This document shows positions 33,393-53,904 of a stretch of 64,000 bases of DNA, one piece after another. The position numbers were made by a program, and so were the translations under genes. Location of the stretch: NCBI GenBank assembly GCA_963720265.1, contig CAVRET010000002.1, positions 814,069-878,068 of the forward strand. The letters run 5' to 3'. Position 1 is the first letter of the stretch. Each line of letters starts with the position of its first letter. A model generated the notes under the pieces. The model worked only from the letters and a program-made list of their open reading frames with translations, searched no databases and had not been told where the DNA came from. The DNA is from an uncultured bacterium (GTDB taxonomy: Bacteria > Patescibacteriota > Saccharimonadia > UBA4664).

Positions 33393-33659
33393 TCAATATA
33401 CCTGATTATGCGAGCCAATATCTAGCAGCAAGTAATGATCTTCGGTCTCCTGATATACAACGCGCACATCTCCTCCTACTGAAAAAGCTCGAAGCCCTTG
33501 GAGCTTTCCCGTGAGTGGATGATCATTCAATGGCTCGCGTCTCACTCCATGGCGGAATAGCTCCAGGTGTTGTTTAAAACGATCTATCATTTTTGGCTGG
33601 CGAGCGTAACGCAGCTTGAGATGCTTTTGGAATTGCCGGGAATATTCAATTGGCTTCAT
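33393..33659 (-). CDS. type II toxin RelE/ParE family
   Basis: 88 aa basic protein (KLQGLRAFSVGGDVRVVYQETEDHYLLLDIGSHNQVY), overlapping the upstream antitoxin ORF by 14 nt. Confidence 0.75.
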   Translation of the reverse strand: MKPIEYSRQFQKHLKLRYARQPKMIDRFKQHLELFRHGVRREPLNDHPLTGKLQGLRAFSVGGDVRVVYQETEDHYLLLDIGSHNQVY

Positions 33660-33948
33660 CCGACAGCAGATCTTTCATGAAGTCGTCGACATCGTCGTAG
33701 ATCTTTACCTTGCCTTGACGGCGGAGGTCTTCATGTTCACTAATCTGCTGAGCATATCGGGCTTCGGCTTCAGGGCTGAGTCGCACCGATTCCTCGAGAT
33801 TGACCCTCCTGCCATCGACGTCGGCCTTGGCCAAGAAGCGAATATAGGCCTGGAGTGAGTCAAAGCCATTGCGGTGGGCGAAGTTTTCCCACTCATCGCG
33901 AATATCTTTATCTAGTGGTACTTGTAATTTAACTGTACTCATGCTCAT
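33646..33948 (-). CDS. cognate antitoxin (RelB/DinJ-like)
   Basis: 100-aa acidic protein immediately upstream of and overlapping the RelE-like gene. A promoter-like TTGACA lies at 33975-33980 (minus strand). Confidence 0.55.
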   Translation of the reverse strand: MSMSTVKLQVPLDKDIRDEWENFAHRNGFDSLQAYIRFLAKADVDGRRVNLEESVRLSPEAEARYAQQISEHEDLRRQGKVKIYDDVDDFMKDLLSDEAN

Positions 33949-33968
33949 AGAGTATCAAAGAAGTATAA

Positions 33969-34133
33969 TTATGTCAATGCCGTGCCTAAACTTTGTATAA
34001 AGCAAGCATAAGTGCCTTGGTGGGGCGTGAGGATAAGATGGCTGCCTCTTTGCCTAAGCTCGACGAAGCCACATTTCTTTAAGACTTTAACGACTTGGTC
34101 GGGCGATAGACTTGGTAGTGAGCCGTCGGGCAT
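33969..34133 (-). pseudogene. hicA toxin, 3'-truncated (diverges after SHLIL at the conserved-motif junction)
   Basis: The first 35 aa, MPDGSLPSLSPDQVVKVLKKCGFVELRQRGSHLIL, are about 85% identical to intact hicA at 43324-43560. The C-terminus is replaced by the antisense translation of the recurring motif AGCATAAGTGCCTTGGTGG (34005-34025). Confidence 0.6.
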
Positions 34134-34357
34134 TAAATAGCAACCTGGACACGGCCCTGCCAAATGTGGTCTTGGGGTAGTTCCTTGTGTTCGCTCTTCA
34201 ACGACTCAAGATATAGTTCGATAGCTTCGGTAATATTGATCTCGGCTTCTTCAAGGGTATTACCCTGGCTATAGCAGCCAGGCAGCGCAGGTACAGATGC
34301 CACAAAGCCACCTTCTGGATCGGCCTCATATATAACTGTGTAAACTTGAGTTTTCAT
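34133..34357 (-). CDS. HicB family antitoxin
   Basis: 74 aa, MKTQVYTVIYEADPEGGFVASVPALPGCYSQGNTLEEA. It is 90% identical to 43560-43784. The stop overlaps the hicA start by 1 nt. Confidence 0.8.
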   Translation of the reverse strand: MKTQVYTVIYEADPEGGFVASVPALPGCYSQGNTLEEAEINITEAIELYLESLKSEHKELPQDHIWQGRVQVAI

Positions 34358-34488
34358 AGATATATTTTACCATAGCAATGGTGGCTCGCCCGACTATTTC
34401 TGATTCAATTTTTTGGCTCCTTAAGGGGATAATTCCTGGTGGGGCGTAGTAGGTTCTGTTAGAACTGCGATTATGAATTCTGCGAGAC

Positions 34489-35538
34489 CTATTTGATCGA
34501 TACCCAATCATGAGTTTGGCTGCGGTGTTTTTCGGCCAAACCATGAATAAAAATGTTGAGTTTCAGCCTGGGCGTGAGCTGACCTTCCCTATCGCGATCG
34601 AACTCAATACCCCAGATTCTTGCACTGACATAATCATCGGCAACCTGGAGTTCTTCTCGTAACACCCTTTTAAGTGCATCGTCCAAAGCTTCTCCCTTGC
34701 GGACTTTGTCCATCAAATGGAGGCCGTTTTTTACGTTACGATAGAATTTGCGTTCGTGTTCGTCATCGAAGTCCCAGACATAGGGGTCAATGAAAACTTT
34801 ACGCTTGATATGGAGAGCATCGAATTGTGTATCGTTTACGAGCTTAGTTGATAGGCCATAAGATTGGTAGAAGCTTCTGGGTATAAGTCCAAGGTCGTAT
34901 TTGCGAGCAAAGTCCGCCATGGAGTCAGCGACAAGGTAGGAGAATTCTGGATTTGTCTGCTGGTTGTCTTTATCAACCACAAAGTCGAGCATAGCGTTGT
35001 TGAGGATATGGATCGACCCGTCACGCTTATGTTCTGCATAATAAGGGCTATAAATAACCAGCGCTTCGCGGCCATCACCGATTACTTCAAGACCTTCCGG
35101 GGCGAATCGAGGCGTGAAGTCAGATTGATTAAAGAACTCTGCGAGCGGTCGACTACGTCGAAAGTAACTGTGATCGAATGACAATCCAGGGTCTTGTGGT
35201 AGCCGGGCGCCGCTATGAAGATTTGAGTAGACGGCGAGCGACAACCGATTGGCGGCATAGCGGATTGAGTACATGATGTCGTCATGGCGCGGAATATCGT
35301 CTTCGTTTGATTTAAGATGAAGCATTTTGTCTTCAATCTTGAGTGCAACAAGAGCCCGTTCGTCGTAGATAAGCTGAGCCGTATCACCCTCAGATATTTT
35401 TGAGACAGACCAACGAGCTTCAATGTGACGATCCACCGGAAAGCTATTTAAAACATCGGCGAGCACGGACTTGAACTCCTCTAGCGCAGTTTCGGTGCTA
35501 GTTTCGAGCCAGTTTTGCTTAACCATAAGGTCAATCAT
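34489..35538 (-). CDS. hypothetical protein (349 aa)
   Basis: Long protein-like ORF with 42% GC. No family recognised by eye. Confidence 0.5.
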   Translation of the reverse strand: MIDLMVKQNWLETSTETALEEFKSVLADVLNSFPVDRHIEARWSVSKISEGDTAQLIYDERALVALKIEDKMLHLKSNEDDIPRHDDIMYSIRYAANRLSLAVYSNLHSGARLPQDPGLSFDHSYFRRSRPLAEFFNQSDFTPRFAPEGLEVIGDGREALVIYSPYYAEHKRDGSIHILNNAMLDFVVDKDNQQTNPEFSYLVADSMADFARKYDLGLIPRSFYQSYGLSTKLVNDTQFDALHIKRKVFIDPYVWDFDDEHERKFYRNVKNGLHLMDKVRKGEALDDALKRVLREELQVADDYVSARIWGIEFDRDREGQLTPRLKLNIFIHGLAEKHRSQTHDWVSIK

Positions 35539-35603
35539 AGAGATATTGTAGCAGGCCTTAGTATAATCTTGAGGCTACGAGCAGTAAAATAATCATAAGT
35601 GCC

Positions 35604-35909
35604 TTGGTGGGCAATGAGGCACGGCATCAGAACTTTTTGGGCGCCTCGAATGTTACCGAATTATACAATGCTTTGCAGGATTTTAAACCCAGGACCAAAA
35701 CTGAGACACGGAGGGTGCCGGCATTACAGCTATCCCCTGCTCGGCGTGGCCTCAATGTAGATAACTTGGTTGCCGACTATAATGCTGGCTGGTCTCTGCG
35801 GCAGCTGACAGACAAGCATGGTATTTGCCGGGAGACAGTGACGTTGCAGCTGCGGAAAGCCGGGGTGACAATACGACTGCGAGGTAGCAATATGCACCAT
35901 GAATGGTAA
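35604..35909 (+). CDS. repeated small HTH protein, intact copy B (101 aa)
   Basis: TTG/GTG start embedded in the conserved motif. Product ends GWSLRQLTDKHGICRETVTLQLRKAGVTIRLRG (HTH). Paralogous to 41873-42190 and to decayed copies at 38289-, 39410- and 53011-. Confidence 0.5.
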   Translation: MVGNEARHQNFLGASNVTELYNALQDFKPRTKTETRRVPALQLSPARRGLNVDNLVADYNAGWSLRQLTDKHGICRETVTLQLRKAGVTIRLRGSNMHHEW

Positions 35910-35925
35910 TTATATGTTGGTCGGA

Positions 35926-36408
35926 TTACTTGACGACTTTGGACATTCGAATGAGGTCGATTGATCCCCAAGGTGTCACCTGTCCAGTTTCGTTGAACCC
36001 GTGGTGCTCATAATACTTTTTTAGCCAGGGCGCTAGCGACATGTAGTCTAACTCTAAGAGGTTGACTTTAAGGCGTTTGGCATAGGCTTCAAGCGCGTTT
36101 ATTAGGGCGGTTCCGAGTCCGATTCCGCGGAATTGCTGTACGACCGTAAGCAATCCGAAGTGCAGACTCGACCCGTCCCGCTGCACATAGACGCAACCGA
36201 CAACTTGCATGCCGCGTTTTGCGATGTAGAATTCGCTTTCACTAATTCTTTGGCTTAGATGCTCACGGTCGGTGCGCGGCCCACCCTTGGCGGCGTCTTG
36301 GTATGCATAGGCCGCATTGATCATCGTCACGGTATCATCGATGTCTGCAGTTGTGATACGTCTTAAAGCGATGTCTTTGAACTCAAACAAGTTGGATAAT
36401 GTTGTCAC
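35926..36408 (-). CDS. GNAT family N-acetyltransferase
   Basis: VQQFRGIGLGTALINALEAYAKRLKVNLLELDY is the acetyl-CoA-binding motif A, Q/RxxGxG/A. Confidence 0.8.
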   Translation of the reverse strand: MTTLSNLFEFKDIALRRITTADIDDTVTMINAAYAYQDAAKGGPRTDREHLSQRISESEFYIAKRGMQVVGCVYVQRDGSSLHFGLLTVVQQFRGIGLGTALINALEAYAKRLKVNLLELDYMSLAPWLKKYYEHHGFNETGQVTPWGSIDLIRMSKVVK

Positions 36409-36419
36409 GAGTTCTAGGC

Positions 36420-36680
36420 TTATTTTGTGGACGCTTTATGGATTATTGACGCGGCAAGAGTCTGATAAGGTATTCCCTCTTCTATCGCCTTGGACTTGAG
36501 TCTGTAGAGATCACGCTCGGAGAGACGGATGTTTATATTTTTTGTCTTGTTGAGGGTGTTCCTGGCATAAGATTGCAGGAGCTTCTTACGTTTCTCAAGA
36601 TCTGGCGCGCTCGCGAGTTCACCGTTTTCGAACTCATCAAGAAGTTTTTGCTCTTCGTCTGATAGTTCATAGTAGTTCAT
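36420..36680 (-). CDS. BrnA-type antitoxin
   Basis: 86 aa with C-terminal NINIRLSERDLYRLKSKAIEEGIPYQTLAASIIHKAS, the BrnA/CopG-like pattern. Lies downstream of and overlaps the BrnT-like gene by 4 nt. Confidence 0.6.
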   Translation of the reverse strand: MNYYELSDEEQKLLDEFENGELASAPDLEKRKKLLQSYARNTLNKTKNINIRLSERDLYRLKSKAIEEGIPYQTLAASIIHKASTK

Positions 36681-36958
36681 GATTTATCTCCTTTTAAGTA
36701 TTGCTTGGTGGCTTTTCGTGATGGAATTATAGTTTTTAAGAATATCTTTTCGTTATCTTCGACGTATGGCACTAAGTAAACGTAATTATCTAAATTGACT
36801 ACTAGCTCTCGTTGCCCGGGGTATCTACCTTTATTGGGGTGTTCTAGGTCATCAAGTAACCTGTTGTCATCGATAGCAGCCAACACATCTTCGAACGAGA
36901 CTCCTCGTTCAGTCTTAAGCCGACTATTTTTAAACTCATCCCAGTCGTAGTATTTCAC
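36677..36958 (-). CDS. BrnT (DUF497) family toxin
   Basis: YDWDEFKNSRLKTERGVSFEDVLAAIDD matches the DUF497/BrnT N-terminal signature FEWDxxKxxxNxxKHGVSFEEA. Confidence 0.7.
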   Translation of the reverse strand: MKYYDWDEFKNSRLKTERGVSFEDVLAAIDDNRLLDDLEHPNKGRYPGQRELVVNLDNYVYLVPYVEDNEKIFLKTIIPSRKATKQYLKGDKS

Positions 36959-37046
36959 GATCCTATATTATGACAAAGCATATGGTTTGTAAATGTTCGA
37001 CAGACAAAAAAGAGACCCATGAGGATCTCCTTTTAGCATAAGTTCT

Positions 37047-37343
37047 TTGGTGGAGCTTGTCCGCCGTTACTCGAACCGCTACGACCTGCAGGAACGACTA
37101 TCAGATGCCAGGTCGGAGGCCAATCAACCGGCTGGACGAGAGCACGACGGCGACCAACCCGTCGTCAGCGGTCGAGTTCCAGGCACCTGGCGGGTGAGTG
37201 ACCGGCTGACGGACGCTGACATCCAGGTGCTCATCCGTGAGTTCCTGGCCGGTACGTCCAAGCGGGAACTAGCGGAACGATACGCAATCAGTGTGACCTC
37301 CGCGAAGAACATCCTGAGACAGCATGGCGTGAGACGCGCCTAA
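37047..37343 (+). CDS. small protein with resolvase/Hin-type C-terminal HTH (second motif-associated family)
   Basis: Starts at the TTG GTG inside a motif copy (37035-37053). The C-terminus, LTDADIQVLIREFLAGTSKRELAERYAISVTSAKNILRQHGV, is HTH_7-like. A truncated paralogue lies at 43834-43960. Confidence 0.45.
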   Translation: MVELVRRYSNRYDLQERLSDARSEANQPAGREHDGDQPVVSGRVPGTWRVSDRLTDADIQVLIREFLAGTSKRELAERYAISVTSAKNILRQHGVRRA

Positions 37344-37522
37344 CTCACGCTGGGGCCTTGACCTCGGCGTTTCGTGTCTCGGCCTGGATTCCGGGCCGGG
37401 GCACACCTCACTGGATCTGTGCGGGGCAACGCAACCTGGCCGAGCAAATGCTCCGGCGAGAACTGTCATTGCGGACTCTGAGTGCCTATACTGATGCTAA
37501 TAGATGGATAAAAAGGAACGCG

Positions 37523-38146
37523 ATGGGCATCGACAGTCTACCGAAATGGAAGATTACTACTGCAAGATATGTGGTTGACGACAAGTGGCTAAAAGTGCGC
37601 GCAGATACATGCCTTACTCCAGACGGCAAGACGCTGGACCCTTGGTATGTCATCGAATATCCGGAATGGATAAACTGTGTCGCGGTGGACAACGAATTTA
37701 ACGTGGCTTTGCTACGTCATTACCGGCATGGCGCCGATGAGTATGTGGAAGAGATTGTCGCTGGGACCGTTGAAAAAGATGATACCCCGATGGCCTCTAT
37801 AAGGAGGGAATTAGTTGAAGAAATAGGCTACCAGGGCGGTAATGTCTACCAAACCGGTGTTTCTTTTGCTAATCCGTCAAGCCAGAACAATAGGGTGTAC
37901 TCTTTTCTTGCCGCAGGCGGCACTTTTTCGAAATCGACATACAAAGAGACTGGTGCTGATTTCGTGATTGAAAAGCCTAAGTTTACAGATTTTGTCCAAG
38001 CCGTCACGCGCCTGGATTCAAGCGTCACATATCAGAGTCTGCATCTTACGGCCATATTCTTTGCGCTCAACTACATTAGGTATTCGAATGACCCAGGCCT
38101 TTTGGCGTTACGTAATGAGCTTTTGGCGATAAGCACTGAGCCTTAA
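37523..38146 (+). CDS. NUDIX hydrolase
   Basis: Nudix box GTVEKDDTPMASIRRELVEEIGY. ATG at 37523 with an AAAAGGAA RBS. The longer 37358 start adds an Arg/Trp-rich, non-homologous extension. Confidence 0.7.
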   Translation: MGIDSLPKWKITTARYVVDDKWLKVRADTCLTPDGKTLDPWYVIEYPEWINCVAVDNEFNVALLRHYRHGADEYVEEIVAGTVEKDDTPMASIRRELVEEIGYQGGNVYQTGVSFANPSSQNNRVYSFLAAGGTFSKSTYKETGADFVIEKPKFTDFVQAVTRLDSSVTYQSLHLTAIFFALNYIRYSNDPGLLALRNELLAISTEP

Positions 38147-38288
38147 CCTACTGTAAAAGTCTAGGTACCAAACGGGATTCGAACCGAGCGAATCCCGTGG
38201 CAGAGCCAAAAACTGATGATAAGCTGTCGGATAAAGCGTGGGTTCTTTCGGCCTAATTTTTGGCTTAGAGACGGTTGAACATTCAAAT

Positions 38289-38629
38289 TTGGTGGGCAAT
38301 GAGGGTTGGTATCAGAAGTTTTTGTGTGCCTCGAATGTTAGAGAATTGTACGATGCTCTGCAGGGCTTTAAGCCCCGGGCCACAAGCGAGGCACGGCGGG
38401 TGCCAGCATTGCAGCTCTCTCCCGCCCGGCGTGCACTTGATACCGACAAACTCGTCCGTGATTACAATGACGGTTGGTCACTGCGGCAGCTGGCCCGACA
38501 GAATGGGATCTGCCGAGATACGTGACGCTACAGCTCCGAAAGGCCGGGGTTAAGATTCGACCGCGAGGTAGCAATGTGAGCATAAAACAAGCAAAGAGCC
38601 GCCAGGTGGCAACTCAATGCTCCACCTAA
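38289..38629 (+). pseudogene. repeated small HTH gene, copy D, with a +1 frameshift
   Basis: Colinear with copy B, but GATACGTGACG replaces GACAGTGACG (a 1-nt insertion). This causes a premature TGA at 38525, while the HTH region continues in another frame to 38629. The 5' motif is partly deleted. Confidence 0.55.
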
Positions 38630-38633
38630 CGGC

Positions 38634-39260
38634 TCATGACGTAGGAGTGGGGTTCGAATACCGGATTGTGCGCATATGCCGTAGCACTTTGCGCATGTTG
38701 AGAGCGGGCTTAGCATCTGGATCAACCAGCAGTTCGAATGGGCGGACGGACAAGACGATAATCCGGCCATCTCGAAGCGCGTAGCGATTGCGCCGAAGGC
38801 GATCGATTGCGGCTTGCAGGTTCCAAGCTGAATGCAGAGCGATGCAGCCGTAGAGATTGTAGAAAACTACAGCTGGAATCAGGAACAGCAGACCGCTGGC
38901 AAATCTCAATTCCCATCGATGCTTCTGGACGAAGCTCGCATCTGACTTGCTGGTTGCCATAATGTCACGGTCCCGGTGGGCGGCCATAAAAGCGACGTTC
39001 ATGCTCACCAGAATGCACGCCAGCCATAGCCGGTTGGAGGTGATTAGCATGGGGACGCCCCGCACGCCTGCCTCCTCCATCGCAGGAAAGAGCATGGAGT
39101 AGCCAAGCAGGTGAATCGTTCGCCGGCGATTGTGGCGAATGAGCCATTCAGCTCCATGGCGCTCAAATCCGCGAGCCGTGACAAGCGTCTCGTAGGTCAG
39201 GCAGTACGTGAACCCCACGAAGCCAATCACAATCGCGACATAGATCTGGTGAAGGATCAC
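38634..39260 (-). CDS. CPBP (CAAX protease / Abi) family intramembrane metalloprotease
   Basis: Motifs EEAGVR (EExxxR), FMAAH (FxxxH) and HSAWN (HxxxN), in order, within a polytopic membrane protein. Confidence 0.65.
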   Translation of the reverse strand: MILHQIYVAIVIGFVGFTYCLTYETLVTARGFERHGAEWLIRHNRRRTIHLLGYSMLFPAMEEAGVRGVPMLITSNRLWLACILVSMNVAFMAAHRDRDIMATSKSDASFVQKHRWELRFASGLLFLIPAVVFYNLYGCIALHSAWNLQAAIDRLRRNRYALRDGRIIVLSVRPFELLVDPDAKPALNMRKVLRHMRTIRYSNPTPTS

Positions 39261-39409
39261 GGTGACCTCTTCCGGTATAGGAACTTCCTTACGGTTTGAG
39301 TATATTATAACATCGATTTTATAGAAACGTCAATTTCTATTCTTCATATCTGTACTCGAAAGGACCTTTTCGTCAAAAAGGAGAAAATACTAATTTAAAC
39401 ATAAGGGCC

Positions 39410-39731
39410 TTGGTGGGCAATGAGGCGCGGCATCAGAACTTTTGGATACCGAGACGGTCGCTGAATTATACCATGCACTGCAGAAATTTAAGCACCGGCC
39501 AATAGTGAGACGCGACGGATACCGGCTTTGCGGCTCTCCCCTGCCCGACGTGCATTAGATATTGGCAAACTCGCCGACGACTATAAAGCCGGCTGGTCTT
39601 TGCGACAGTTGGCCGATAAGAACGGTATCCACATGGAGACAGTGACACTACAACTGCGCAAAGTCGGTGTTGAGATTCGACCGCACGGATGTAGCGTACG
39701 GATTAACTCAATTAACTTAGCTCGCCGTTAA
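39410..39731 (+). pseudogene. repeated small HTH gene, copy E, with two 1-nt deletions
   Basis: The motif is intact (ACATAAGGGCCTTGGTGGG). The N-terminal third is disrupted by two single-base deletions relative to copy B. The C-terminal HTH, GWSLRQLADKNGIHMETVTLQLRKVGVEIRPHG, is still readable in ORF 39528-39731. Confidence 0.5.
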
Positions 39732-40343
39732 GAGCCCTATATTGCTCCCGACAAATTGCATCAACGGTTGTCCGATCGCATGTTGCCAAAATTGGGCCTG
39801 CTCTGCGGCGGTCATATCGGCGATACACTTACCGCTCGCCGGATCGATCTGAATTGACTCTATGGGATAGCCTTCAACAATATGCTGACTTCGGATGGCA
39901 GTGAATTGGCGCGGCGAGCGAATAGTTGCTTCCGCTATCCCTCCCTCAGGAGCTGCAATCGTAACGGCAAATTCCCAATGGCCCTTCATAGAACCGCCAT
40001 GACTTTCGACTAATTTGGCATAATAATTAAGCATTTCCCGGTCGCTCGGACGACCGGTACTACCGGGAATTCGACGCACATGCAGACCAGGCTGTTCGTC
40101 GTCTGGCAGACCATCCAGGTAGAGAGCATTGTCCATAGAGAAAACCGGCCTACCAGCTGCCCGGGCGTAGGCTCGGGCCTTGGCGCGAGCGTTCTCTGCG
40201 GCGGTCACTCCGTCTTCCGGTACTTCTAGGTTAATACCTAATTCGTTAATCCCACGCACAAGTACACCTAATGGTTCGAGTGTACCCTGCACTTGGTCGA
40301 TCTTGGCTTTGTTCTCAGTTCCAAATAGTAGCTCAACCGCCAT
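39717..40343 (-). CDS. Ham1/ITPase (non-canonical purine NTP pyrophosphatase)-like protein
   Basis: N-terminal LLFGTENKAKIDQVQ and a central SMDNALYLDGLPDDEQPGLHVRRIPG resemble RdgB/Ham1-family motifs. Assigned by pattern only. Confidence 0.45.
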   Translation of the reverse strand: MAVELLFGTENKAKIDQVQGTLEPLGVLVRGINELGINLEVPEDGVTAAENARAKARAYARAAGRPVFSMDNALYLDGLPDDEQPGLHVRRIPGSTGRPSDREMLNYYAKLVESHGGSMKGHWEFAVTIAAPEGGIAEATIRSPRQFTAIRSQHIVEGYPIESIQIDPASGKCIADMTAAEQAQFWQHAIGQPLMQFVGSNIGLLTAS

Positions 40344-40383
40344 GGGGCCTCCTTATTCCGCCGGACTAGCATATCCTATCAGC

Positions 40384-41118
40384 CTACACCTCAGGCTGAA
40401 ACTTGTTGCGACTCCAGTTCCACAAAACCGGATGGACTTGAGAAGGATTGATACCACTTCCCGTTAAAAGCTTCTCCCAGGCAGCTTCAACTACCAATGG
40501 GCTTGCTCCGGTAGGCACCAGCCCGAGTTGGACGCTGGACTGTATGACGTGAGTATCGGGAATAATTGAGATTTCTTGCGGATTGGTGAACTCGACATCC
40601 GTGTAACGTGATAGGATGAACGGCCAATAGTTTGATAATTTAGGGCCCGACAAATAGGGAAATCGCTTGCGATGAGTAACCTGTAGCAATTGGATCAGCT
40701 GGCCAGCATCATGGTGCGCTTCAGCAATAATGCGTCGGGGATCGTCTTCATAGAAATCATGCAGTGTCTGGGCAATAGTGGTCCAGATCAACGTGTGCTT
40801 GTTGGGCTGGAGGGCTAAGCGATATTTACCGAGGTCATCTCGGACTTGCTTAAGAGGTGCGTCCCCGAGTTTTTCAGGAAAGAAAACGTAGCGGGTGGTC
40901 TCGTCCTCGTAGGTTTTGAGCGCTGACGCCCACATGGCCGGAGAATTTCGTTGAAAGTTGATGCAGACAGGAAGCGTGAAGTAAAGATAGTTTTCGCGAC
41001 TGTTCAAATGTACGTTTGGATGGACTTCGTGCTGAGCAAGTGTTGGGATTAAGTGCTGGTCGTAGGAGGCCATTAGGCGCTTCACTCGACCTAATAGAAT
41101 GACTTGATCTTCTTCCAC
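40384..41118 (-). CDS. HhH-GPD superfamily DNA-glycosylase-like protein
   Basis: Helix-hairpin-helix FPYLSGPKLSNYWPFIL, followed by IPDTHVIQSSVQLGLV (cf. endonuclease III VDTHVFRVSNRLGL). Confidence 0.45.
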   Translation of the reverse strand: MEEDQVILLGRVKRLMASYDQHLIPTLAQHEVHPNVHLNSRENYLYFTLPVCINFQRNSPAMWASALKTYEDETTRYVFFPEKLGDAPLKQVRDDLGKYRLALQPNKHTLIWTTIAQTLHDFYEDDPRRIIAEAHHDAGQLIQLLQVTHRKRFPYLSGPKLSNYWPFILSRYTDVEFTNPQEISIIPDTHVIQSSVQLGLVPTGASPLVVEAAWEKLLTGSGINPSQVHPVLWNWSRNKFQPEV

Positions 41119-41160
41119 CGATTCATCATACCAAAAGGTGTAATCTTGGACCTGGTCGCG

Positions 41161-41523
41161 CTATTTAGTCAAAGGATTATGAAGCCGGAGCCCTTCAATT
41201 TTCTCGAAGTCTTCTGTATTGGCAGTCCAAAGCTCACAGTCCTGCTCTAGAGCTGTTGCCGCGATAATGGCATCCCCCAGACTCATTTTGCCTTGTTGCC
41301 GTAATTTAATAGCGCGTTGAATAGTGGCTTCATCAAGCTCAAGCTGCTCGCATTCGACAAAGAGTGCTTCAAGGTAGCTTTGCTCGGCCACGGTGATCTG
41401 CGCATAGCCCAAAGCTTCGATCTTGGTAATACTTCCGTAGGCAATGTCGGTGTCACCTAAGACGTCTGGGGCGATCCTGCCGTTGGCAAGGTAAATAAAA
41501 GTATTGGTGTCGAGTAGAATCAT
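41161..41523 (-). CDS. VapC (PIN domain) toxin
   Basis: MILLDTNTFIY...D at position 5, and the conserved acidic residues of the PIN fold. 120 aa. Confidence 0.8.
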   Translation of the reverse strand: MILLDTNTFIYLANGRIAPDVLGDTDIAYGSITKIEALGYAQITVAEQSYLEALFVECEQLELDEATIQRAIKLRQQGKMSLGDAIIAATALEQDCELWTANTEDFEKIEGLRLHNPLTK

Positions 41524-41526
41524 GGC

Positions 41527-41790
41527 TTACGGCCGGCCCGGCAGCGAGCGGTCTTGGCGTATATCCTTTTGCCAGCTCACCGGATTGGCAATAGTGTCAT
41601 AAGCGTTCAGTGTTTGCAGCTTTGCAATGAGACGTTTAATCTTCGCGTGATCTTGTTCTTTTTGCTTAACCGGTAAGCTTAGACTAACTTTATCGCCGGG
41701 AGTTAATTTGGCGGCGTCAGCATATTGCTTGGGCACACGGAGCGCGACGGAGTTCCCGGTTTTGATGACGGTAGCAGTGTATATATTCAT
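41527..41790 (-). CDS. AbrB/MazE/SpoVT-family antitoxin (VapB)
   Basis: MNIYTATVIKTGNSVALRVPKQYADAAKLTPGDKVSLSL is a swapped-hairpin beta-barrel motif. Stop lies 4 nt before the vapC start. ATG at 41790. Confidence 0.7.
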   Translation of the reverse strand: MNIYTATVIKTGNSVALRVPKQYADAAKLTPGDKVSLSLPVKQKEQDHAKIKRLIAKLQTLNAYDTIANPVSWQKDIRQDRSLPGRP

Positions 41791-41872
41791 GTATCTATTA
41801 TTGTATATATAATTTTGCGAGTCAACAATTACAACAAAAACGGCAACGAGGCCGTTTTTAAGCATAAGTTCT

Positions 41873-42190
41873 TTGGTGGGCAATGAGGCACGGTATCAGA
41901 ACATCTTGGGTGCCTCGAATGTTACCGAATTATACAATGCCTTGCAGGATTTCAAACTTCGGCCCAAGGGAGAGACGCGTAGGATTCCGGCGTTACAGCT
42001 GTCCCCTGCTCGACGTGCTCTGGATGTCAGCAAGCTGGCTAACGACTACCGGGATGGCTGGTCGCTACGGCAGCTGTCCCAAAAGAACGGTATTTGTAGA
42101 GATACTGTAAGATTGCAATTGCGCAAGGTCGGGGTACGTATTCGAGCTCGAGGCAGCAATGTCCGGATTAAGCAAGTGCCAATAAGGTAG
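41873..42190 (+). CDS. repeated small HTH protein, intact copy F (105 aa)
   Basis: About 75% identical to copy B. Preceded by the motif TAAGCATAAGTTCTTTGGTGGG and the hairpin AAAAACGGC(aacgag)GCCGTTTTT at 41836-41859. Confidence 0.5.
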   Translation: MVGNEARYQNILGASNVTELYNALQDFKLRPKGETRRIPALQLSPARRALDVSKLANDYRDGWSLRQLSQKNGICRDTVRLQLRKVGVRIRARGSNVRIKQVPIR

Positions 42191-42433
42191 CTCGGACAAA
42201 GACGAGGAGCGGGGGCTTTACTACAGCTGCGACTCGGCAAGTGCGACTATGCGATTAGCAATGTTTTCAACTGATTGATTGCCATCTATTGCCTTATCGA
42301 CTAGTCCGCTACGCCTTAATCGTTCGAACGTGTCAAGCTGCCGTTGGAGCCATGGCGTAGCGTCTTGGTAATTCTCGATTCGCATGCGCTGCTCATTGCG
42401 TTGGGCGAGCTGTTCGATAGTAAGTTGTGAACC

Positions 42434-42960
42434 ACCTCGGGCTAAAGCCCGAGGCTTCCTTGGGGCGGCATGCTGGGTTTAGCTTTCCATTGATTTTCGA
42501 TATACCGTTTAATCGCCTGCTCCGTGTTACGACCAACACTCTCGGCGAAGTAGCCATCCGCCCAGAAGCTATCTCCCCATAACCATTCTTCCAGTTCAGG
42601 ATGCGTCTGGCGGATAGCCCGACTTGATCCGCCCTTGAAGATTTGTACTACCTGTGACACCGAGATGCTGGGAGGTAGTTCAATAAGCATATGAATGTGG
42701 TCGGGCATCACTGCCAGCCGCTCAATCCACCAGTCGTTCATCTCTGCGCACTGAAAGAATAATCGCTTCAGGTCAGTGGCGACTTCGCCCCGCAGGATGC
42801 TTTTGCGGTACTTGGGTATCCAGACGATATGAAATTGCAGGCGATATAGCGTATGCGCACCGGAATAATATTTTTTACCTGACTTCACATACCCAGCATG
42901 CCAGACTGTCGGCGCCAGCGCCAAGGTTGGACGTCACCCGGTTTTGCCTTGGCGCTACCG
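42434..42960. mobile_element. IS200/IS605-family element (tnpA only) bounded by subterminal hairpins
   Basis: Hairpin CCTCGGGCT(aaa)GCCCGAGG at 42434-42453 and the GCGCCAAGG...CCTTGGCGC palindrome at about 42915-42960 flank a single Y1 transposase gene. Confidence 0.65.
42442..42924 (-). CDS. IS200/IS605 family Y1 (HUH) transposase TnpA
   Basis: HUH motif PDHIHMLIE and catalytic Tyr context KRYIENQ. YRLQFHIVWIPKYRKSIL is the typical N-terminus. Confidence 0.8.
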   Translation of the reverse strand: MALAPTVWHAGYVKSGKKYYSGAHTLYRLQFHIVWIPKYRKSILRGEVATDLKRLFFQCAEMNDWWIERLAVMPDHIHMLIELPPSISVSQVVQIFKGGSSRAIRQTHPELEEWLWGDSFWADGYFAESVGRNTEQAIKRYIENQWKAKPSMPPQGSLGL

Positions 42961-42976
42961 CCTTAAGCGGACCCAT

Positions 42977-43300
42977 TCATCCCTGGCCTAAAGGCCCAGG
43001 GGTCTCTGGGAGGGTTACGAGAAGGATTATCCTGAAACCGTTACTCCGAGCAGATTTAATTAGCTCTTCAGGAATGTAACTTGCAAAATAGACTACGGCA
43101 GGCCGGGAAATGATTTCTTTGGTGGTTTGCGGCACCAGTATTTCGTTCTTTAGCTTGTCGTCGGGCCATTCTCCCATATTGGCCTTCATGACCTCTTCAT
43201 CGGTTTCAGCGATATTGAGGTCTGTATGTTCGCGGAGGTAACGCAGAAGCGTCGATTTACCACCGGCGGAGGGCGCGAGAATGAGTAACTTGTATGCCAT
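42977..43300 (-). pseudogene. P-loop nucleoside/nucleotide kinase, N-terminal fragment split by the IS200 insertion
   Basis: Walker A LILAPSAGGKSTLL. The ORF ends abruptly (PETPGPLGQG) at the IS edge. A matching ~70-codon C-terminal remnant is readable on the minus strand at about 42228-42430, on the other side of the IS. Confidence 0.45.
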
Positions 43301-43323
43301 GCGTTAAGTGTAGCAAAGGGGAG

Positions 43324-43560
43324 TTATAGAAATTTTAAGAATTCGTCGATCGTTAGTTGCGCTTCCAATTCAATAATCTTTCTAAGCAATGGCTTTTTGA
43401 TGTCTTTGCCCCGGTGCATCGGCACGACCACCCGCTTGCCGGACTGTTCACTGAATAATATCAGGTGGCTGCCTTTTTGCCTGAGCTCAACAAATCCACA
43501 TTTTTTCAGAGCCTTCACGACCTTCTCAGGCGACAGGCTTGGTAATGGGCTTTCCGGCAT
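43324..43560 (-). CDS. HicA family toxin (intact)
   Basis: LPSLSPEKVVKALKKCGFVELRQKGSHLILFSEQSGKRVVVPMHRGKDIKKPLLRKII is full length with a conserved His. Confidence 0.85.
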   Translation of the reverse strand: MPESPLPSLSPEKVVKALKKCGFVELRQKGSHLILFSEQSGKRVVVPMHRGKDIKKPLLRKIIELEAQLTIDEFLKFL

Positions 43561-43784
43561 TAAATTGCAACCTGAACACGACCTTGCCAGATATGATCTT
43601 GTGGCAAATCCTTGTGCTCACTCTTCAGTGACTCAAGGTAGAGTTCGATGGCTTCGGTAATATTGACTTCTGCCTCCTCAAGTGTCTCGCCTTGACTGTA
43701 ACAGCCCGGCAAGGATGGAACAGAAGCGACAAATCCGCCTTCCGGGTCGGCTTCGTATATGACTGTATAAACCTGGGTATTCAT
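43560..43784 (-). CDS. HicB family antitoxin
   Basis: 74 aa, paralogue of 34133-34357. 1-nt overlap with the hicA start. Confidence 0.85.
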   Translation of the reverse strand: MNTQVYTVIYEADPEGGFVASVPSLPGCYSQGETLEEAEVNITEAIELYLESLKSEHKDLPQDHIWQGRVQVAI

Positions 43785-44055
43785 AGATCGATTTTACCAT
43801 AATGTGCAGCTTAGGGCCTTCATATAGCTATTAAGCATAAGTGCTTTGGTGGAGCTCGTCTGCCGTTACTGCAACCGTTACGACCTGCAGGAGCGGCTAA
43901 CGAAAGCCCGATTCAGAACGGCCAACGGCGAGAAGCGGGGCAGGTTAGTTAGGCCTTCAGTGTGAGCTCTAGGGTATCTTCCCCAGTCCGAAAATATGGC
44001 CGGGAAAATAAGCTGTCAGTACTTTAGTTCGAGCACTTACTGTAATCTTTGATTA

Positions 44056-44718
44056 ATGGCATCTTTTTTTGAGCTAATACGAGATGTGAGGCGCGGACGG
44101 CTTGTTGGCTGGACGCTCATAGCAATCGGGATATCGGGACTCTTCGGTACGAGGCTATACGCTCCCGCAACCCATGTACGAGCGCATATCGTTGAAAGCC
44201 AGGTTGTGACAAAGTCAGCGCCGAAACCAACTGTAAAGGAGGTGGCGGCTTATGCAGTGCCTCCATCTGATCCTAAGTTTATAGCGATCCCAGCGATCGA
44301 TTTAGGCAATACGCCGATACTGGCCTTTGGATTATCAGCAACCGGTACGATCGCGACCCCGAATTCGATTTATGAAACTGGTTGGTTTGACGGGAGTAGT
44401 AAACCCGGACAGGCCGGAGTGATGTTTATTTATGGACACATAGCGAGCTTTACGCCGTATAGCGTGTTTGCAAAGTTGCATATGCTCAGGCCGGGCGACG
44501 AGGTGATTATAACCAGGGGGGATAATACGATATTTCGCTACCAGGTTACAGGGTCTGAAACATACCCGTACAATGCGGTCGATATGAGCAGGGTGTTAAC
44601 TCCCGCAAGTGCGGGCATTCCAGCCTTAAACCTTATGACGTGTGCAGGGCAAATTATTACGGTTGGCGGGGTTAAAGAATACAGCCAGCGGCTAGTTATA
44701 TTTACGCAGCAGATTTAG
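44056..44718 (+). CDS. sortase (class E/F-like)
   Basis: N-terminal TM anchor. Catalytic His (MFIYGHIASF) and the Cys motif LNLMTCAG (TLxTC). Confidence 0.75.
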   Translation: MASFFELIRDVRRGRLVGWTLIAIGISGLFGTRLYAPATHVRAHIVESQVVTKSAPKPTVKEVAAYAVPPSDPKFIAIPAIDLGNTPILAFGLSATGTIATPNSIYETGWFDGSSKPGQAGVMFIYGHIASFTPYSVFAKLHMLRPGDEVIITRGDNTIFRYQVTGSETYPYNAVDMSRVLTPASAGIPALNLMTCAGQIITVGGVKEYSQRLVIFTQQI

Positions 44719-45892
44719 GCCGACGTCCGCGCACAATGGCGCATCCCGCAATAAAGCTGATTAGAGACAGGGTGGCAAGTGGAATGTTGGGATGTTGCTT
44801 TGAGACAGCGATTAGGCCAGTATCTGGAGCTTTGGGTGAGTTCGTGCCGGATGAACCAGAATTGCCAGAGCTACTACTAGCTAATACACCGGTAGTCGTC
44901 CATATGTCGCCGCCACTGACAGTCGCCGCCAGGTGGCTGCCGTCACTGGATGAAGCTATGGCGTCCCAGTTAGGTGCGCTTACTGCGGCAGTTTCGGTTT
45001 GGTCCGCCCAGGTCACCCCACCGTCGGTAGATACGTATATGTCGGTATCGATGCCTACAGCCGCTAGATGGCTGCCGTCGCTGGATGAAGCTATGGCCGA
45101 CCAGTTGGGTGAGCCAGCTGCTGTTTGATCTGTCCAGGTCGCGCCTCCATCGATGGAGGTGTAGATGTCGCCGCCACTGACAGTCGCTGCAAGGTGGCTT
45201 CCGTCGCTGGATGAGGCAATGTCCGTCCAGCTGCGCGTCCCGGCTGCAGCTTGGTCCGTCCAGGTAGCCCCGCCGTCGGTGGAGGTATAAATATCGCCAC
45301 CATTGACAGTCGCTGCTAAGTGGCTGCCGTCGCTGGACGAAGCTATGGCCGACCAGTTGCGTGTGCCAGCTGCACTTTGATCTGTCCAAGTCACACCTCC
45401 ATCGGTTGAGGTATAGATGTCGCCTCCACCAACCCCAACGGCAGTCGCTGCCAAGTGGCTGCCGTCGCTGGATGAGGCTATTGCTTGCCAGAAGCGTGAG
45501 CCAGCTGCGGCTTGATCGGTCCAGGTCACGCCTCCGTCGATGGAAGTGTAGATGTCGCCTCCGTGGACCTCAGCCGCTAAGTGGCTGCCGTCGCTGGATG
45601 AGGCTATTTCTTGCCAGCTGCGAGAGCCAGCTGCAGCTTGATCGGTCCAGATCACACCTCCATTGGTGGAGGTGTATATGTCGCCGGCACCGGAAGCATT
45701 GACGGTCGCTGCCAAGTGGCTGCCGTCACTGGATGAGGCTATGTCCGTCCAGTTGCGTGAGCCAGCTGCGGTTTGATCGGTCCAGGTATAGCCGCCGGTT
45801 GCAAGTATATTCGACGTCGATGCAAAGCTAGCAGTTAAGACACAGGCCGACAGAAAGACTCTTCGTATAATCCGATGTGGTACATGTTTCAT
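44702..45892 (-). CDS. secreted BNR/Asp-box repeat protein with C-terminal sortase sorting signal
   Basis: Signal peptide. About eight tandem ~40-aa repeats, each with IYTSTDGGVTWTDQ (SxDxGxTW BNR motif) and IASSSDGSHLAATV. C-terminal KAPDTG, a hydrophobic stretch, then RGRRPK. Confidence 0.65.
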   Translation of the reverse strand: MKHVPHRIIRRVFLSACVLTASFASTSNILATGGYTWTDQTAAGSRNWTDIASSSDGSHLAATVNASGAGDIYTSTNGGVIWTDQAAAGSRSWQEIASSSDGSHLAAEVHGGDIYTSIDGGVTWTDQAAAGSRFWQAIASSSDGSHLAATAVGVGGGDIYTSTDGGVTWTDQSAAGTRNWSAIASSSDGSHLAATVNGGDIYTSTDGGATWTDQAAAGTRSWTDIASSSDGSHLAATVSGGDIYTSIDGGATWTDQTAAGSPNWSAIASSSDGSHLAAVGIDTDIYVSTDGGVTWADQTETAAVSAPNWDAIASSSDGSHLAATVSGGDIWTTTGVLASSSSGNSGSSGTNSPKAPDTGLIAVSKQHPNIPLATLSLISFIAGCAIVRGRRPKSAA

Positions 45893-46331
45893 TTTTGTAC
45901 AAATGGTCTCCCGATAAACACTTATGGTAATTACTATAACTAAGTCCCATGGCCAGGCAAATAGGGACCGGTCCTCGCTGGCGTCTAGATGAAGCGGCTC
46001 GTTTGTCAGGACCGGCTACAGGGCCCGAGCGGCAGCGTTGCGGTCGCGTCGAGTAGAGTTTGGCGTTTTGCCTGATCTGAGGGCTCAAACGTACAGTTTT
46101 GCCAGGGAAACTCTGTGCTTTGATGCCACTGATTACGCAAAGATCCCGCCTGCTTGGGGCGGGATCTTTGGAGATACATCAAATTGGAGCGAACTTTATT
46201 TGCGTAGGGAGACGATTACGAGACCCGCAACCAGCGCGTGGCCAAGAGCTTTGAATCGCGGTTGCACGCGTTTGCGTGCCAGATAGGCATAAGTGCTTTA
46301 TTTGAGACGCCGTTTGTTTTAAGCTTGAGGC

Positions 46332-51960: not shown

Positions 51961-53373
51961 GTGCTTATCTTTATTCAAGATAAGAGCGGATCGTGGATTA
52001 CTGCAGCCTCAGGGCGTTCGTGCTCAGCAACTTGCGTTGTTCGCTTGACAATCTCCGGCCACAAGCTCGGAGACCTGCTCAGGGACCGCTACTACCTGGG
52101 TTACGTCGAGTATGACGGAATCGAGTACGCGGGCAGGCATGAGGCGCTCATCAGCCCAGAGCTGTTTGAGCGCGTCCAGAAGGTGCTGGACTCCCACTCG
52201 GGCACGGGTACGCGGACGCGGACGCATAACCACTACCTCAAGGGCGTGCTCTGGTGCGCTCGGTGTGAGCACCGCTTCATCGTGCAGCGGGCCCGCGGCA
52301 ACGGTGGCGAGTACTTCTACTTCTTCTGCCGGGGACGACAAGAGGGGCTGTGCGATGCACCGTACGTCAACGTCCATGCGGTAGAGCAAGCCGTAATCGA
52401 CCACTACGCCGCGGTCACACTCTCAGACGAGTTCAAGGAGGCTGTACGGGCAAGGCTCGATGGCGCGCTTGCCCATGATCTAGGGAGCACTCAAGCAGTC
52501 CGTGACCGGCTGGAGGCCCGGCTTGCCGCACTCGACACCAAGGAAGACAACCTGCTTGACCTGGCCGCGGACGGCGAGCTACCGAAGGAGAAGATCAGGG
52601 AGAAGCTGCGTACGATCCGAGACGAGCGTGCCAGCATTCGGCGCGATATCGAACGGCTCGACGCTGAGCTTGAGACTGGCCGTGCCGTGTTCGGGCTCGC
52701 GCTCTACCTGCTCGACGAACCGCAGGAGCTGTACCGGCAGGCCGGGCCAGCCCTGCGGAAGGCGATGAACCAAGCGATCTTTACCAGGCTCAAGCTAGAC
52801 GGCCGTGCAGTTACAGCTGATGAACTGGCTGAGCCGTTCGACGTGATCGTGCCTGCTGGTCGGGCCTACGACCGACGCACCTACCAACGTAAAAGACCAC
52901 CCGCACCGTTGAGCGGAGTGGTCTTCCACGAAGGCATCTTGGCCTATGATCTAACCTCGGCTGATCTGCTAGAACTTGGCCTAGGGGGCATTGGTTCTAG
53001 TAAGTCCGCCATGGTGGTCTTAACGATTGCTCTTCAGAACATTTCGGCCACTCAGAGGATCACTGAATTATACGATGCAGTCAAGAATTGTAAATCCCGG
53101 TCCCAGAATAAGACTCGACGAGTGCCGGCGCTTCAGCTCTCCCCTGCCCGCCGAGGACTTGATATTGATCGGCTGGCTACCGACTACCGGGCCGGCTGGA
53201 CGTTGCAACAGCTGGCCGACAAGAACGGCATCCATAAGGATACGGTAACACTGCAACTCAAGAAGGCGGGAGTCAATATTCGGCCAAGAGGAAGCAATAT
53301 GCGCGGAAAGTTAAGTTATTTTATTCCGCCGCGTAACTCCTCGGGCCGTTTTACCAGTACTACCAGTTGTTAG
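51961..53373 (+). pseudogene. large serine recombinase lacking the N-terminal catalytic domain, fused in frame to a copy of the small HTH gene
   Basis: Starts inside the recombinase domain (RDRYYLGYVEYDGIEYAGRHEALISPELF). Zinc ribbon CARCEHRF...YFFCRGRQEGLC and a coiled-coil region follow. From about 53011 (CCATGGTGG, a motif variant) the frame continues into ...RRVPALQLSPARRGLDIDRLATDYRAGWTLQQLADKNGIHKDTVTLQLKKAGVNIRPRG. Confidence 0.5.
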
Positions 53374-53893: not shown

Positions 53894-53904
53894 TGGTAGA
53901 AATC

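Follow-up and report, generated by a model that had tools for sequence, protein, structure and literature searches.

The window, a 64,000-nucleotide (nt) stretch of contig CAVRET010000002.1 from an uncultured Saccharimonadia bacterium (assembly GCA_963720265.1), contains an island of toxin-antitoxin and other accessory genes that is divided into short units by a repeated DNA motif. Many of these units are led by small genes encoding helix-turn-helix (HTH) proteins, or by their remnants, and the rightmost copy of the motif adjoins a truncated large serine recombinase (LSR) gene. Judging from sequence features, the segment from 34.0 to ~57 kb is probably a head-to-tail stack of ~10 units resembling the staphylococcal cassette chromosome (SCC), each unit being led by the attachment (att) site of an LSR family that targets tRNA genes.

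Repeated sites and helix-turn-helix genes

An earlier note on this DNA had described a motif repeated in one orientation. Allowing up to 3 mismatches, AGCATAAGTGCCTTGGTGG matches six times, always on the + strand (34005, 35592, 37035, 39398, 41861, and 43834), compared with 0.04 matches expected from shuffles, none of which reached six; the partial and variant copies named in the note (38290, 46286, and 53012) exist as well. The aligned copies share the pattern CATAAG-NNCN-TTGGTGG, and homology among them starts abruptly 13 nt 5' of TGGTGG, outside the HTH genes, with unit-specific sequence further upstream. We propose that a site comprises a 13-nt left arm termed X1 (CATAAG-NNCN-T), the core TGGTGG, and a 24-nt P'-type right arm, which would double as the first 8–10 codons of an HTH gene of family A or B. 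The ~10 sites are co-oriented and spaced 1.1–2.5 kb apart, with the exception of a 6.7-kb gap between 46286 and 53012 (Table 1).

The sites at 34018, 34437, and 46286 have no HTH gene. The first leads directly into a 3'-truncated hicA on the - strand. The second, which was not in the earlier note, lies between hicB and a 349-aa open reading frame (ORF) and has a different left arm, X2, of which 8–9 nt are identical to the metagenome loci L004 and L003 (comparison loci in other genomes and metagenomes carry L numbers). The third is a remnant marking the decayed right edge of the X1 array, adjoining rearrangements associated with insertion sequences (IS). The copy at 38290 retains core and right arm behind a degenerate left arm. 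At 53012 the recombinase gene with its 3' end, GGTTCTAGTAAGTCCGCCA/TGGTGG, stands in place of the usual left arm, such that the P arm consists of the recombinase codons ...GSSKSAMV and the P' arm of the first HTH-A codons. The statement that the motif always opens a small HTH gene is right about two HTH families and wrong for 34018 and 46286.

Only four HTH genes are intact (35604, 37047, 41873, and 53011); a frameshift disrupts each of the genes at 38290 and 39411, and only a truncated copy is left at 43847. Family A comprises the intact genes at 35604, 41873, and 53011 and both frameshifted copies, and family B the intact 37047 and the truncated 43847. Both families are real small proteins with a C-terminal three-helix HTH, for which a PDB sequence search and a fold search returned generic three-helix matches only (TyrR/Fis, LuxR/GerE, Mos1, and resolvase types). 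Family A shows a dN/dS of 0.10–0.23, indicative of purifying selection, at a dS of ~0.8–1.6, and was not found in GTDB species representatives; HTH-A and GNAT are syntenic in metagenome locus L002, where they stand behind a different left arm. The family-B N-terminus, VELVRRYSNR, is near-invariant over 37 homologues and invariant in a 22-sequence alignment (A3).

Terminator-like hairpins are located directly 5' of several X1 arms (41835–41860, 37008–37034, and 39358–39385), between cargo promoter and site, and may insulate the units from one another transcriptionally. A string at 36689–36711 inside the brnT/brnA junction, TTTTAAGTATTGCT/TGGTGG, bears a weak likeness to the motif, lacks a P' arm, and is probably a chance match.

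Table 1. Window coordinates of att-like sites, HTH genes, the recombinase remnant, and unit cargo
Feature	Position	Strand	Source
Site copy 1: X1 left arm AGCATAAGTGCCT, core TGGTGG 34018–34023, short C-type right arm (GGCGT...)	34005..34035	+	
Site copy: left arm X2 GGGGATAATTCC, core TGGTGG 34437–34442, right-arm AGAAC at attP (P') spacing	34425..34465	+	
Site copy: X1, core 35605–35610, P' arm GCAATGAGGCACGGCATCAGAAC	35592..35633	+	
Family-A HTH gene, intact, 101 aa; weak PF19575 HTH_58 match	35604..35909	+	Pfam
Cargo of unit 35605: GNAT acetyltransferase, CopG-type antitoxin, BrnT toxin	35926..36958	-	Pfam
Site copy: X1, core 37048–37053, family-B P' arm AGCTTGTCCGCCGTTACTCGAAC	37035..37076	+	
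Family-B HTH gene, intact, 98 aa	37047..37343	+	
Cargo of unit 37048: NUDIX-domain protein	37358..38146	+	Pfam
Degenerate site: left arm AACATTCAAATT, core 38290–38295, P' arm ending GAAG, then frameshifted family-A HTH pseudogene	38277..38600	+	
Cargo: CPBP/Rce1-like membrane protease	38634..39260	-	Pfam
Site copy: X1 variant AACATAAGGGCCT, core 39411–39416, P' arm, then disrupted family-A HTH pseudogene	39398..39731	+	
Cargo: Ham1-like NTPase, 244-aa protein of unknown function, VapC (PIN), MazE-type VapB	39717..41790	-	Pfam
Site copy: X1, core 41874–41879, P' arm; bidirectional terminator-like hairpin directly 5'	41861..41902	+	
Family-A HTH gene, intact, 105 aa	41873..42190	+	
Cargo: 54-aa ORF, IS200/IS605 Y1 transposase, 107-aa P-loop protein, HicA, HicB	42221..43784	-	
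Site copy: X1, core 43847–43852, family-B right arm with GAAC mutated to CAAC, then HTH-B remnant truncated after ~38 codons	43834..43960	+	
Cargo: sortase (+), BNR-repeat surface protein (-)	44056..45892		
Left-arm remnant GGCATAAGTGCTT alone; core and right arm lost	46286..46298	+	
LSR gene, 5'-truncated, ~residues 247–570 of full-length homologues, catalytic Resolvase domain gone	51961..53010	+	
attP-like site GGTTCT-N13-TGGTGG-N18-AGAAC, quasi-symmetric about last G of ATGGTGG	52993..53040	+	
Family-A (A2 subtype) HTH gene, in frame with recombinase ORF	53011..53373	+	
Cargo behind HTH-A2: AAA_33 kinase-like protein, HD_3, MazG, Ppx/GppA, NUDIX, 141-aa ORF	53384..56932	-	Pfam

The recombinase remnant and its tRNA-targeting relatives

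A serine recombinase fragment fused to a motif copy had been reported at 51961–53373. This 470-aa ORF indeed contains Recombinase and Zn_ribbon_recom domains and no Resolvase domain according to Pfam, the LSR reads in frame into the family-A HTH, and the motif probably belongs to the att site of that same LSR. We found no LSR in the window other than this truncated copy, which adjoins the 53012 site. Full-length homologues at ~80% identity have the Resolvase, Recombinase, and zinc-ribbon domains all present. Within a set of ~120 LSR homologues the closest ~40 are 65–85% identical to the window protein and the others ~45–55%.

The C-terminus ...GSSKPVMV is retained in 67 LSR homologues, whose sequences diverge directly after it. 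In 56 of the 67, what follows is a tail encoded by the T-arm of a tRNA gene on its antisense strand (GFEPVTPRL, GIEPVTSSV, ELRGFEPLTPSM, and similar). At the DNA level the L005 LSR ends inside a tRNA-Ala(GGC) gene and the L015 LSR inside a tRNA-Pro gene; in a blastn comparison, L005 and the window are homologous up to 53017, the final G of ATGGTGG, and TGGTGG is the reverse complement of the CCACCA end of tRNA. Because of these antisense tails and the L005 and L015 junctions, members of the LSR family are taken to integrate at the CCA end of tRNA genes, which is their natural attB. The crossover is placed at the last GG of TGGTGG, or the equivalent CG in L015, because it is here that the 56 homologues enter antisense tRNA genes. 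The motif itself had been taken for the att site; by this evidence the crossover would lie at its 3' end and not in its middle, and the 13 nt to the left resemble a decayed recombinase 3' end.

Close LSR homologues in L005 and L006 (contigs ERZ25039507 contig_4492 and ERZ25039460 contig_4326) terminate a module of type IV coupling protein (T4CP, TrwB-like), Replic_Relax, Xre, ImmA, and LSR genes that adjoins a tRNA gene. Neither HTH-A nor HTH-B was found as the first gene of these two elements within the 10-kb flanks, which stop short of the left ends; our model predicts an HTH-B-type gene starting GTGGAGCT there. L006 also has a 3-kb insertion (11713–14803) exactly at the LSR crossover, beside a tRNA-Ala remnant. 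It is bounded by 15-bp terminal inverted repeats (AGGTCTTCACGTTTG / CAAACGTGAAGACCT), has an internal subterminal repeat and an apparent ATGGTG duplication, and appears to be a second kind of mobile element at the same spot.

Site geometry and constraint on the DNA

For comparison of the arms, all sites were anchored on the core TGGTGG. LSR 3' ends, intact or remnant (P arms), have GGTTC 15–19 nt left of the core, a feature common to L002, L005, L015, and L022. The right arms of HTH-A, HTH-B, and the 34437 site have (A/C)GAAC ending 23 nt right of the core, and the tRNA targets (L005, L006, L015, and L020) have TTCGAAC ending 18 nt right of it, placing the motif of both HTH families 5 bp further from the crossover GG. 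The string TGGTG-N20-GAAC is present in the window at 34437, 35605, 37048, 39411, 41874, and 53012, with 0.58 occurrences expected from single-base shuffles. In serine integrases the zinc-ribbon-domain motif occupies half-site positions 16–24 in attP and lies 5 bp closer in attB (Rutherford et al.; PMC3783163). The relation of HTH arms to tRNA arms matches this published attP versus attB geometry exactly, and the 5-bp attP-type spacing therefore identifies the HTH gene start as a P'-type half-site and not a chromosomal attB. The site at 52993–53040 has the full form of an attP, at ~50 bp, quasi-symmetric about the central dinucleotide and with outer zinc-ribbon-domain motifs; the X1 copies have the outer motif on the right arm only.

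Several observations indicate that the motif is a DNA site and not coding sequence alone, as had been argued before. Synonymous third positions in six family-A genes, otherwise saturated at such positions, are 93% identical in codons 1–10 compared to 59% in codons 11–97, and codons 1–10 of the 35604 HTH-A gene are its P' arm. Over nine copies, some with only 43–57% protein identity, the best-conserved blocks are TGGTGG and TCAGAACTTT, with variable sequence between them. The 5' end of family B (GTGGAGCTTGTCCGCCGTTAyTCGAACCG) hardly varies between the window (GC 0.53) and Actinomycetota (GC >0.6), where the proteins are 35–70% identical; between the window and L008 (GC 0.61), 1 of 31 nt differs while the proteins are only 68–69% identical. 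This 5' end looks like the 3' half of tRNA-Ala interrupted by 5 extra nt. The residues encoded by the P' arm (1–10) are disordered in an AlphaFold model, and the arm is kept at 34437 without any gene. The LSR junctions described above point the same way.

A further string, CTGACCTGC(GGAT), recurs in the HTH-B left arms of several genera (L015 9975–10000, L017 ~2583–2607, and L020 9985–10000). CTGACCTGC is seen again ~30 nt past the core in HTH-B coding sequence, just downstream of the P' arm, and resembles the variable/anticodon-arm region of tRNA-Ala.

A recombinase–HTH fusion gene split by integration

The fusion of LSR and HTH-A at 51961–53373 has counterparts elsewhere. Amycolatopsis locus L022 has a complete 656-aa ORF composed of LSR and HTH-B, and protein P0200 runs from an LSR (...SISSVMV-ELLGRYANL...) into HTH repeats. 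An 8.9-kb element in L015 opens with HTH-B at its left end and has the LSR remnant beside tRNA-Pro at its right end; joining these ends at their shared GTCG reconstructs an attP that reads ...NKPCLV-DLLRRYSNR..., in frame. The HTH genes hence represent the C-terminal domain of an attP-containing LSR–HTH fusion gene that is split by integration. In the free (attP) element the LSR gene would pass through the crossover into the HTH domain as a single ORF. Integration at a tRNA 3' end would leave the LSR, its tail then encoded by tRNA-antisense sequence, at the right end and the HTH as a separate small gene at the left end, leading the cargo. The 5' end of a resident HTH gene had been suggested as the attB; the HTH is instead better regarded as the element-borne P' side of attP, the real attB being a tRNA 3' end. 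A role of the HTH genes as resident targets was rejected because of the attP spacing and the way in which L015 and L022 are organized. No specific account of a serine integrase gene extending across attP was found in literature searches.

Left arms standing before HTH-A retain LSR 3' remnants of decreasing length, from 1050 nt (window, 53012) through 75 nt (L004) and ~25 nt (L002) to 8–13 nt (L003, 34437, and X1, the last with 13 nt). The 75-nt arm of L004 still translates as ...ELALGVTGCSNNS, the L002 arm, GGTTCTGATAATCATGCTA, reads GSDNHAMV in frame, and X1 in frame reads S-I-S-A-L-V, near the SISSVMV end of P0200. These arms seem to form a decay series of LSR 3' ends, in which X1 appears to be a decayed P arm of 13 nt. 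X1 was also compared by hand, from the arm table, with canonical half-sites and rejected as one of attB or attP type: GTTC is missing at both expected positions and dyad matches to the tRNA right arm number 5 of 18.

Assembly of the array

How the arms are combined bears on how the array arose. X1 stands before right arms of types A, B, and C, which share no homology past TGGTGG, and across genomes the A-type right arm is found behind five kinds of left arm (X1, X2-like, LSR-P, L002-type, and L025-type), joined exactly at TGGTGG. At least six window copies have a common 13-nt boundary and a common 2-nt indel relative to LSR P arms. The arm combinations at TGGTGG therefore argue for recombination at a fixed crossover and not for independent deletions or for homologous exchange over 6 nt. 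The array would be the residue of repeated LSR-mediated joining of HTH-led units that carry toxin-antitoxin and nucleotide-metabolism cargo, most of which would have lost the LSR and some the HTH. Units would have been added singly by site-specific recombination, by an LSR acting in trans or since lost, at presumptive pairs of sites, and each event may have regenerated the site, as the earlier note supposed. With ~10 direct-repeat sites and a single LSR remnant, the anatomy is that of the SCC-like tandem accretion proposed in the earlier note.

Related arrangements, with tandem HTH units or with flank repeats whose ends fall precisely at GTGG, are found in the actinobacterial genomes L015, L020, and L021. 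L015 has two tandem HTH-B units ahead of its LSR. A Plantactinospora chromosome (L021) has a 4.3-kb HTH-B unit between 286-nt repeats that are 97.6% identical and end exactly at ...CTG/GTGG, with a second P'-type arm after the right-hand repeat. In L020, ~260 nt that flank tRNA-Ala on its downstream side recur before HTH-B, 8.7 kb away. HTH-B of L007–L009 leads variable defence genes (AAA_15/21, ThsB_TIR, type I restriction-modification, NUDIX, and HIT), and their synteny with the window is limited to the HTH gene and the PD40/lipase genes.

A number of findings weigh against this interpretation. There is no intact LSR in the window, the sole LSR being without its catalytic domain, and the window has no tRNA gene. 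X1 has no zinc-ribbon-domain motif at the attP or attB position, forms no dyad with the right arm, and is for these reasons not a canonical LSR half-site; an exact X1 arm was seen only in the window genome and one 917-nt contig (L024). The junction beside the LSR, at 53012, has an attP-type and not an attB-type right arm. Canonical LSRs recombine attP with attB only, or attL with attR when a directionality factor is supplied (PMC3783163), and the site pairings needed to build the array are all non-canonical. In L024 the vapB/X1/HTH-A junction is retained, with the whole of 41861..41902 conserved, and homology breaks at 42144, the 3' end of the HTH-A gene, ~300 nt upstream of the Y1 transposase gene (42442–42924). 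L025 shares the vapC 3' region and has vapC beside different cargo with no site between. Since the L024 and L025 breakpoints lie away from the site, other processes such as IS elements and deletions must also have shaped the island, the right part of which has been rearranged by IS elements and a 666-bp duplication.

An alternative is that each junction is the native attP or the integration junction of a separate complete LSR element inserted beside its predecessor, with the LSRs deleted independently, the LSR-less cassettes never mobile, and the HTH 5' ends exchanging sequence, through gene conversion or homologous recombination, so that X1 became uniform. LSR remnants are indeed graded (1050, 75, ~25, and 13 nt), those of the window and L015 are both 5'-truncated, with an IS256-family transposase gene directly upstream of the one in L015, and two of the five family-A copies, among others, are pseudogenes. 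We nevertheless judge this unlikely. Independent deletions would not give an identical 13-nt boundary and 2-nt indel in at least six copies, the occurrence of X1 before A, B, and C right arms leaves only the 6 nt of TGGTGG for homologous exchange, and the gene bodies are only 70–76% identical compared to ~90–100% for X1 and core.

It is less likely still that the motif is simply a promoter and translation start shared by paralogous HTH genes, the island having formed by HTH duplication and unrelated cargo insertion without site-specific recombination. CATAAG/ATAAGT could serve as a -10-like element 6–7 nt before a leaderless GTG start, island cargo genes show a TAnnnT-6 nt-ATG leaderless geometry, and all left-arm variants have AT-rich TAAG/TAAT 2–7 nt before TGGTGG. 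The HTH genes being real proteins under purifying selection, and the stable inheritance of the vapB/X1/HTH-A junction in L024, would fit as well. A sigma-70 scan, however, calls no promoter at any X1 copy, X1 is without TAnnnT, and orthologues in other metagenomes retain TGGTGG and the P' arm but not X1. A promoter would also leave unexplained why LSR homologues diverge at one identical nucleotide, why GAAC stands at attP spacing in two families, why codons 1–10 are conserved at synonymous positions, and why there is a gene-less copy at 34437 and an X1 before the truncated hicA at 34018. X1 may have a promoter role on top of its role in the site.

A conventional or atypical integron, or a Xer/dif-module array built by a tyrosine recombinase at attC or dif-like sites, is very improbable: as in chromosomal integrons, a short repeat separates mostly co-oriented cargo with many toxin-antitoxin genes, but attC-like R''...R' pairs number 0 in 33–47 kb on both strands versus a shuffle mean of 2.1 (by a crude pattern, RYYYAAC...GTTRRRY, and not a covariance model), as the earlier note had expected, the repeat block encodes a protein, being an HTH gene of 300 nt that runs opposite to the cargo, the motif has no 11-6-11 dyad, and a serine recombinase gene demonstrably shares the site. 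No tyrosine integrase (Phage_integrase) match was obtained in the ORFs scanned against Pfam, which covered 3.7–20.3 kb and 30.6–63.6 kb minus the helicase ORF 57897–60062. The string GCATAA in the motif loosely recalls the XerC arm of the Escherichia coli dif sequence.

Overall, an SCC-like stack of LSR-borne units, mostly LSR-less, is the most economical reading, and the array is best read as such. More tentatively, with attP placed between a catalytic/zinc-ribbon/coiled-coil core and the C-terminal HTH domain, the split might act as a switch that reports the integration state: an LSR–HTH fusion in the free element would give way, on integration, to a tail-swapped LSR and a free HTH protein expressed from the left junction and serving as directionality factor, repressor, or targeting domain, and orphan modules of half-attP, HTH, and cargo might be trans-mobilizable cassettes that accrete into integron-like toxin-antitoxin/defence arrays, in the present case in a bacterium whose contig measures only 1.1 Mb. 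We regard this extension as possible though doubtful.

Comparison with known systems

To our knowledge, tandem accretion of recombinase-less cassettes by an LSR has so far been shown essentially for SCC in staphylococci only. The array suggests that another lineage, with relatives in Actinomycetota, follows this logic as well, through a different recombinase family and at a tRNA-type site. If true, toxin-antitoxin and defence islands would be assembled in this way more generally. An att site lies inside the recombinase's own reading frame in 3–4 independent LSR–HTH fusions split by integration. Should the split be functional, it would be a new coupling of recombinase composition to integration state, and it bears on how serine integrases control direction in elements without a recognizable directionality factor. 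A practical yield is a serine integrase family with inferable pairs of attP and attB (tRNA 3' ends).

Like the window, SCC and SCCmec elements of staphylococci (CcrAB/CcrC) have direct-repeat att sites between tandem cassettes, most of which lack a recombinase and carry defence or accessory cargo. Experiments in staphylococci established that the Ccr LSR of one cassette excises and circularizes recombinase-less defence cassettes in tandem with SCCmec (PMC11470126), and the accretion principle therefore has precedent. Unlike SCC, whose mobility has been shown experimentally, the window array is known from sequence alone. Its LSR belongs to a different family with a tRNA 3' end, and not rlmH, as natural target; its site lies inside an LSR–HTH fusion ORF, its units are led by a small HTH gene, and its 13-nt left arm is apparently what is left of a recombinase end. 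A gene other than rlmH borders the array, and neither a Ccr-family recombinase nor an rlmH 3' end, which define the SCC family, is involved. Because of the tRNA 3'-end targets and the different bordering gene, we consider that the region works like an SCC array but stands outside that family. It is an array of SCC-like kind whose att site inside an LSR–HTH fusion ORF was not found described in the literature searched.

Close LSR homologues end a T4CP/Replic_Relax/Xre/ImmA/LSR module beside a tRNA gene, as in actinomycete integrative and conjugative elements (AICEs), and T4CP-like and Replic_Relax genes occur in the window too (7.9–11.4 kb). Ghinet et al. (2011; PMC3218068) described a Mycobacterium group of AICEs with serine recombinases in tRNA-Leu and called such targeting rare. 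Unlike in an AICE, 40 kb separate the conjugation genes of the window from the truncated LSR, the two do not form one contiguous block, and the site is reiterated ~10 times with small cargo units. Contiguous integration, replication, and transfer modules between attL and attR, the mark of an AICE, are seen in L005 and L006 and not in the window. Neither the fusion/split-gene arrangement nor arrays of HTH-led units were found in the literature searched. The remains of the conjugative module in the window (7882–15184, 40 kb from the LSR remnant) comprise genes for a T4CP-like 872-aa protein, Replic_Relax, an IS4-like transposase, and DUF3768, and share no DNA homology with the corresponding modules of L005 and L006.

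Among known systems, the closest to such a split is the integration-dependent immunity of Cluster G/N/P mycobacteriophages, in which attP lies inside the repressor gene and integration into a tRNA gene alters the protein (PMC9262239). The two systems have in common an attP within a protein-coding gene. The mycobacteriophages use a tyrosine integrase and the interrupted repressor loses a degradation tag, whereas in the window it is the serine recombinase itself that is interrupted, losing a C-terminal HTH that becomes a small gene.

In the ICESt1 family of Streptococcus thermophilus, decayed, integrase-less att-flanked elements (cis-mobilizable elements, CIMEs, related to integrative and conjugative elements, ICEs) reportedly accumulate in tandem at one site and can be mobilized in cis or trans (Pavlovic et al., 2004, as cited in PMC3218068). 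ICEs and CIMEs rely on tyrosine recombinases and have identical cores in attL, attR, and attB, which makes accretion simple, while the pairing rules of serine recombinases make it non-trivial. Integrons share with the window small cargo units, many of them toxin-antitoxin pairs, and a repeated recombination site between them. They differ in that the window has no attI/Pc, its repeat is the start of a protein-coding gene, and recombinase family and chemistry are not the same.

Cargo and neighbouring genes

Pfam assigns the array cargo to a YafQ-like toxin, HicAB (twice), GNAT, BrnT with a CopG-type antitoxin, NUDIX, CPBP/Rce1-like, and Ham1-like proteins, PIN/VapC with a MazE-type VapB, an IS200 transposase, a sortase, and a BNR-repeat protein. 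Most of the functions first proposed for these genes were upheld by Pfam, with the exception of "HhH-GPD" (the 244-aa ORF) and "kinase" (the 107-aa P-loop ORF), for which neither Pfam nor PADLOC gave a match; PADLOC had no matches on array cargo. Cargo was also said to lie almost entirely on the opposite strand, which is mostly so, the NUDIX and sortase genes being on the + strand. The two hicAB copies are paralogous, 34033–34374 matching 43460–43801.

The - strand cargo genes starting at 33948, 34357, 35538, and 36958 have a TAnnnT-like hexamer ~6 nt 5' of the start codon and no Shine-Dalgarno sequence, which suggests that cargo transcripts are leaderless. The IS200/IS605 Y1 transposase gene (42442–42924, - strand; Pfam E 3e-39) lies inside the unit beginning at 41874. 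Beside the sortase gene, the gene for the BNR-repeat surface protein (44702–45892, - strand) contains seven tandem coding repeats of 126/135 nt that are 65–81% identical. No tRNA or other RNA genes were detected in the window (ARAGORN; Rfam gathering thresholds), and a tRNA-like string at ~38160–38215 proved to be merely a perfect 9-bp hairpin after the NUDIX gene.

To the right of the X1 array, the 3' part of a PD40/GDSL-lipase gene is present as a perfect 666-bp direct duplication (46683–47348 and 50040–50705) that adjoins an IS5-like transposase fragment (DUF4096, 47452–47955). This has the look of a recent rearrangement involving IS elements, though an assembly artefact is possible. Next to the last HTH-led unit, on its right side, is a three-gene Shango-type anti-phage system (57897–63592, - strand) composed of the SngC helicase (PADLOC E 3e-186), a BrxC/D-type ATPase (PF10923, E 1e-130), and a TM2 + TerB_C protein (SngA, E 2e-14).

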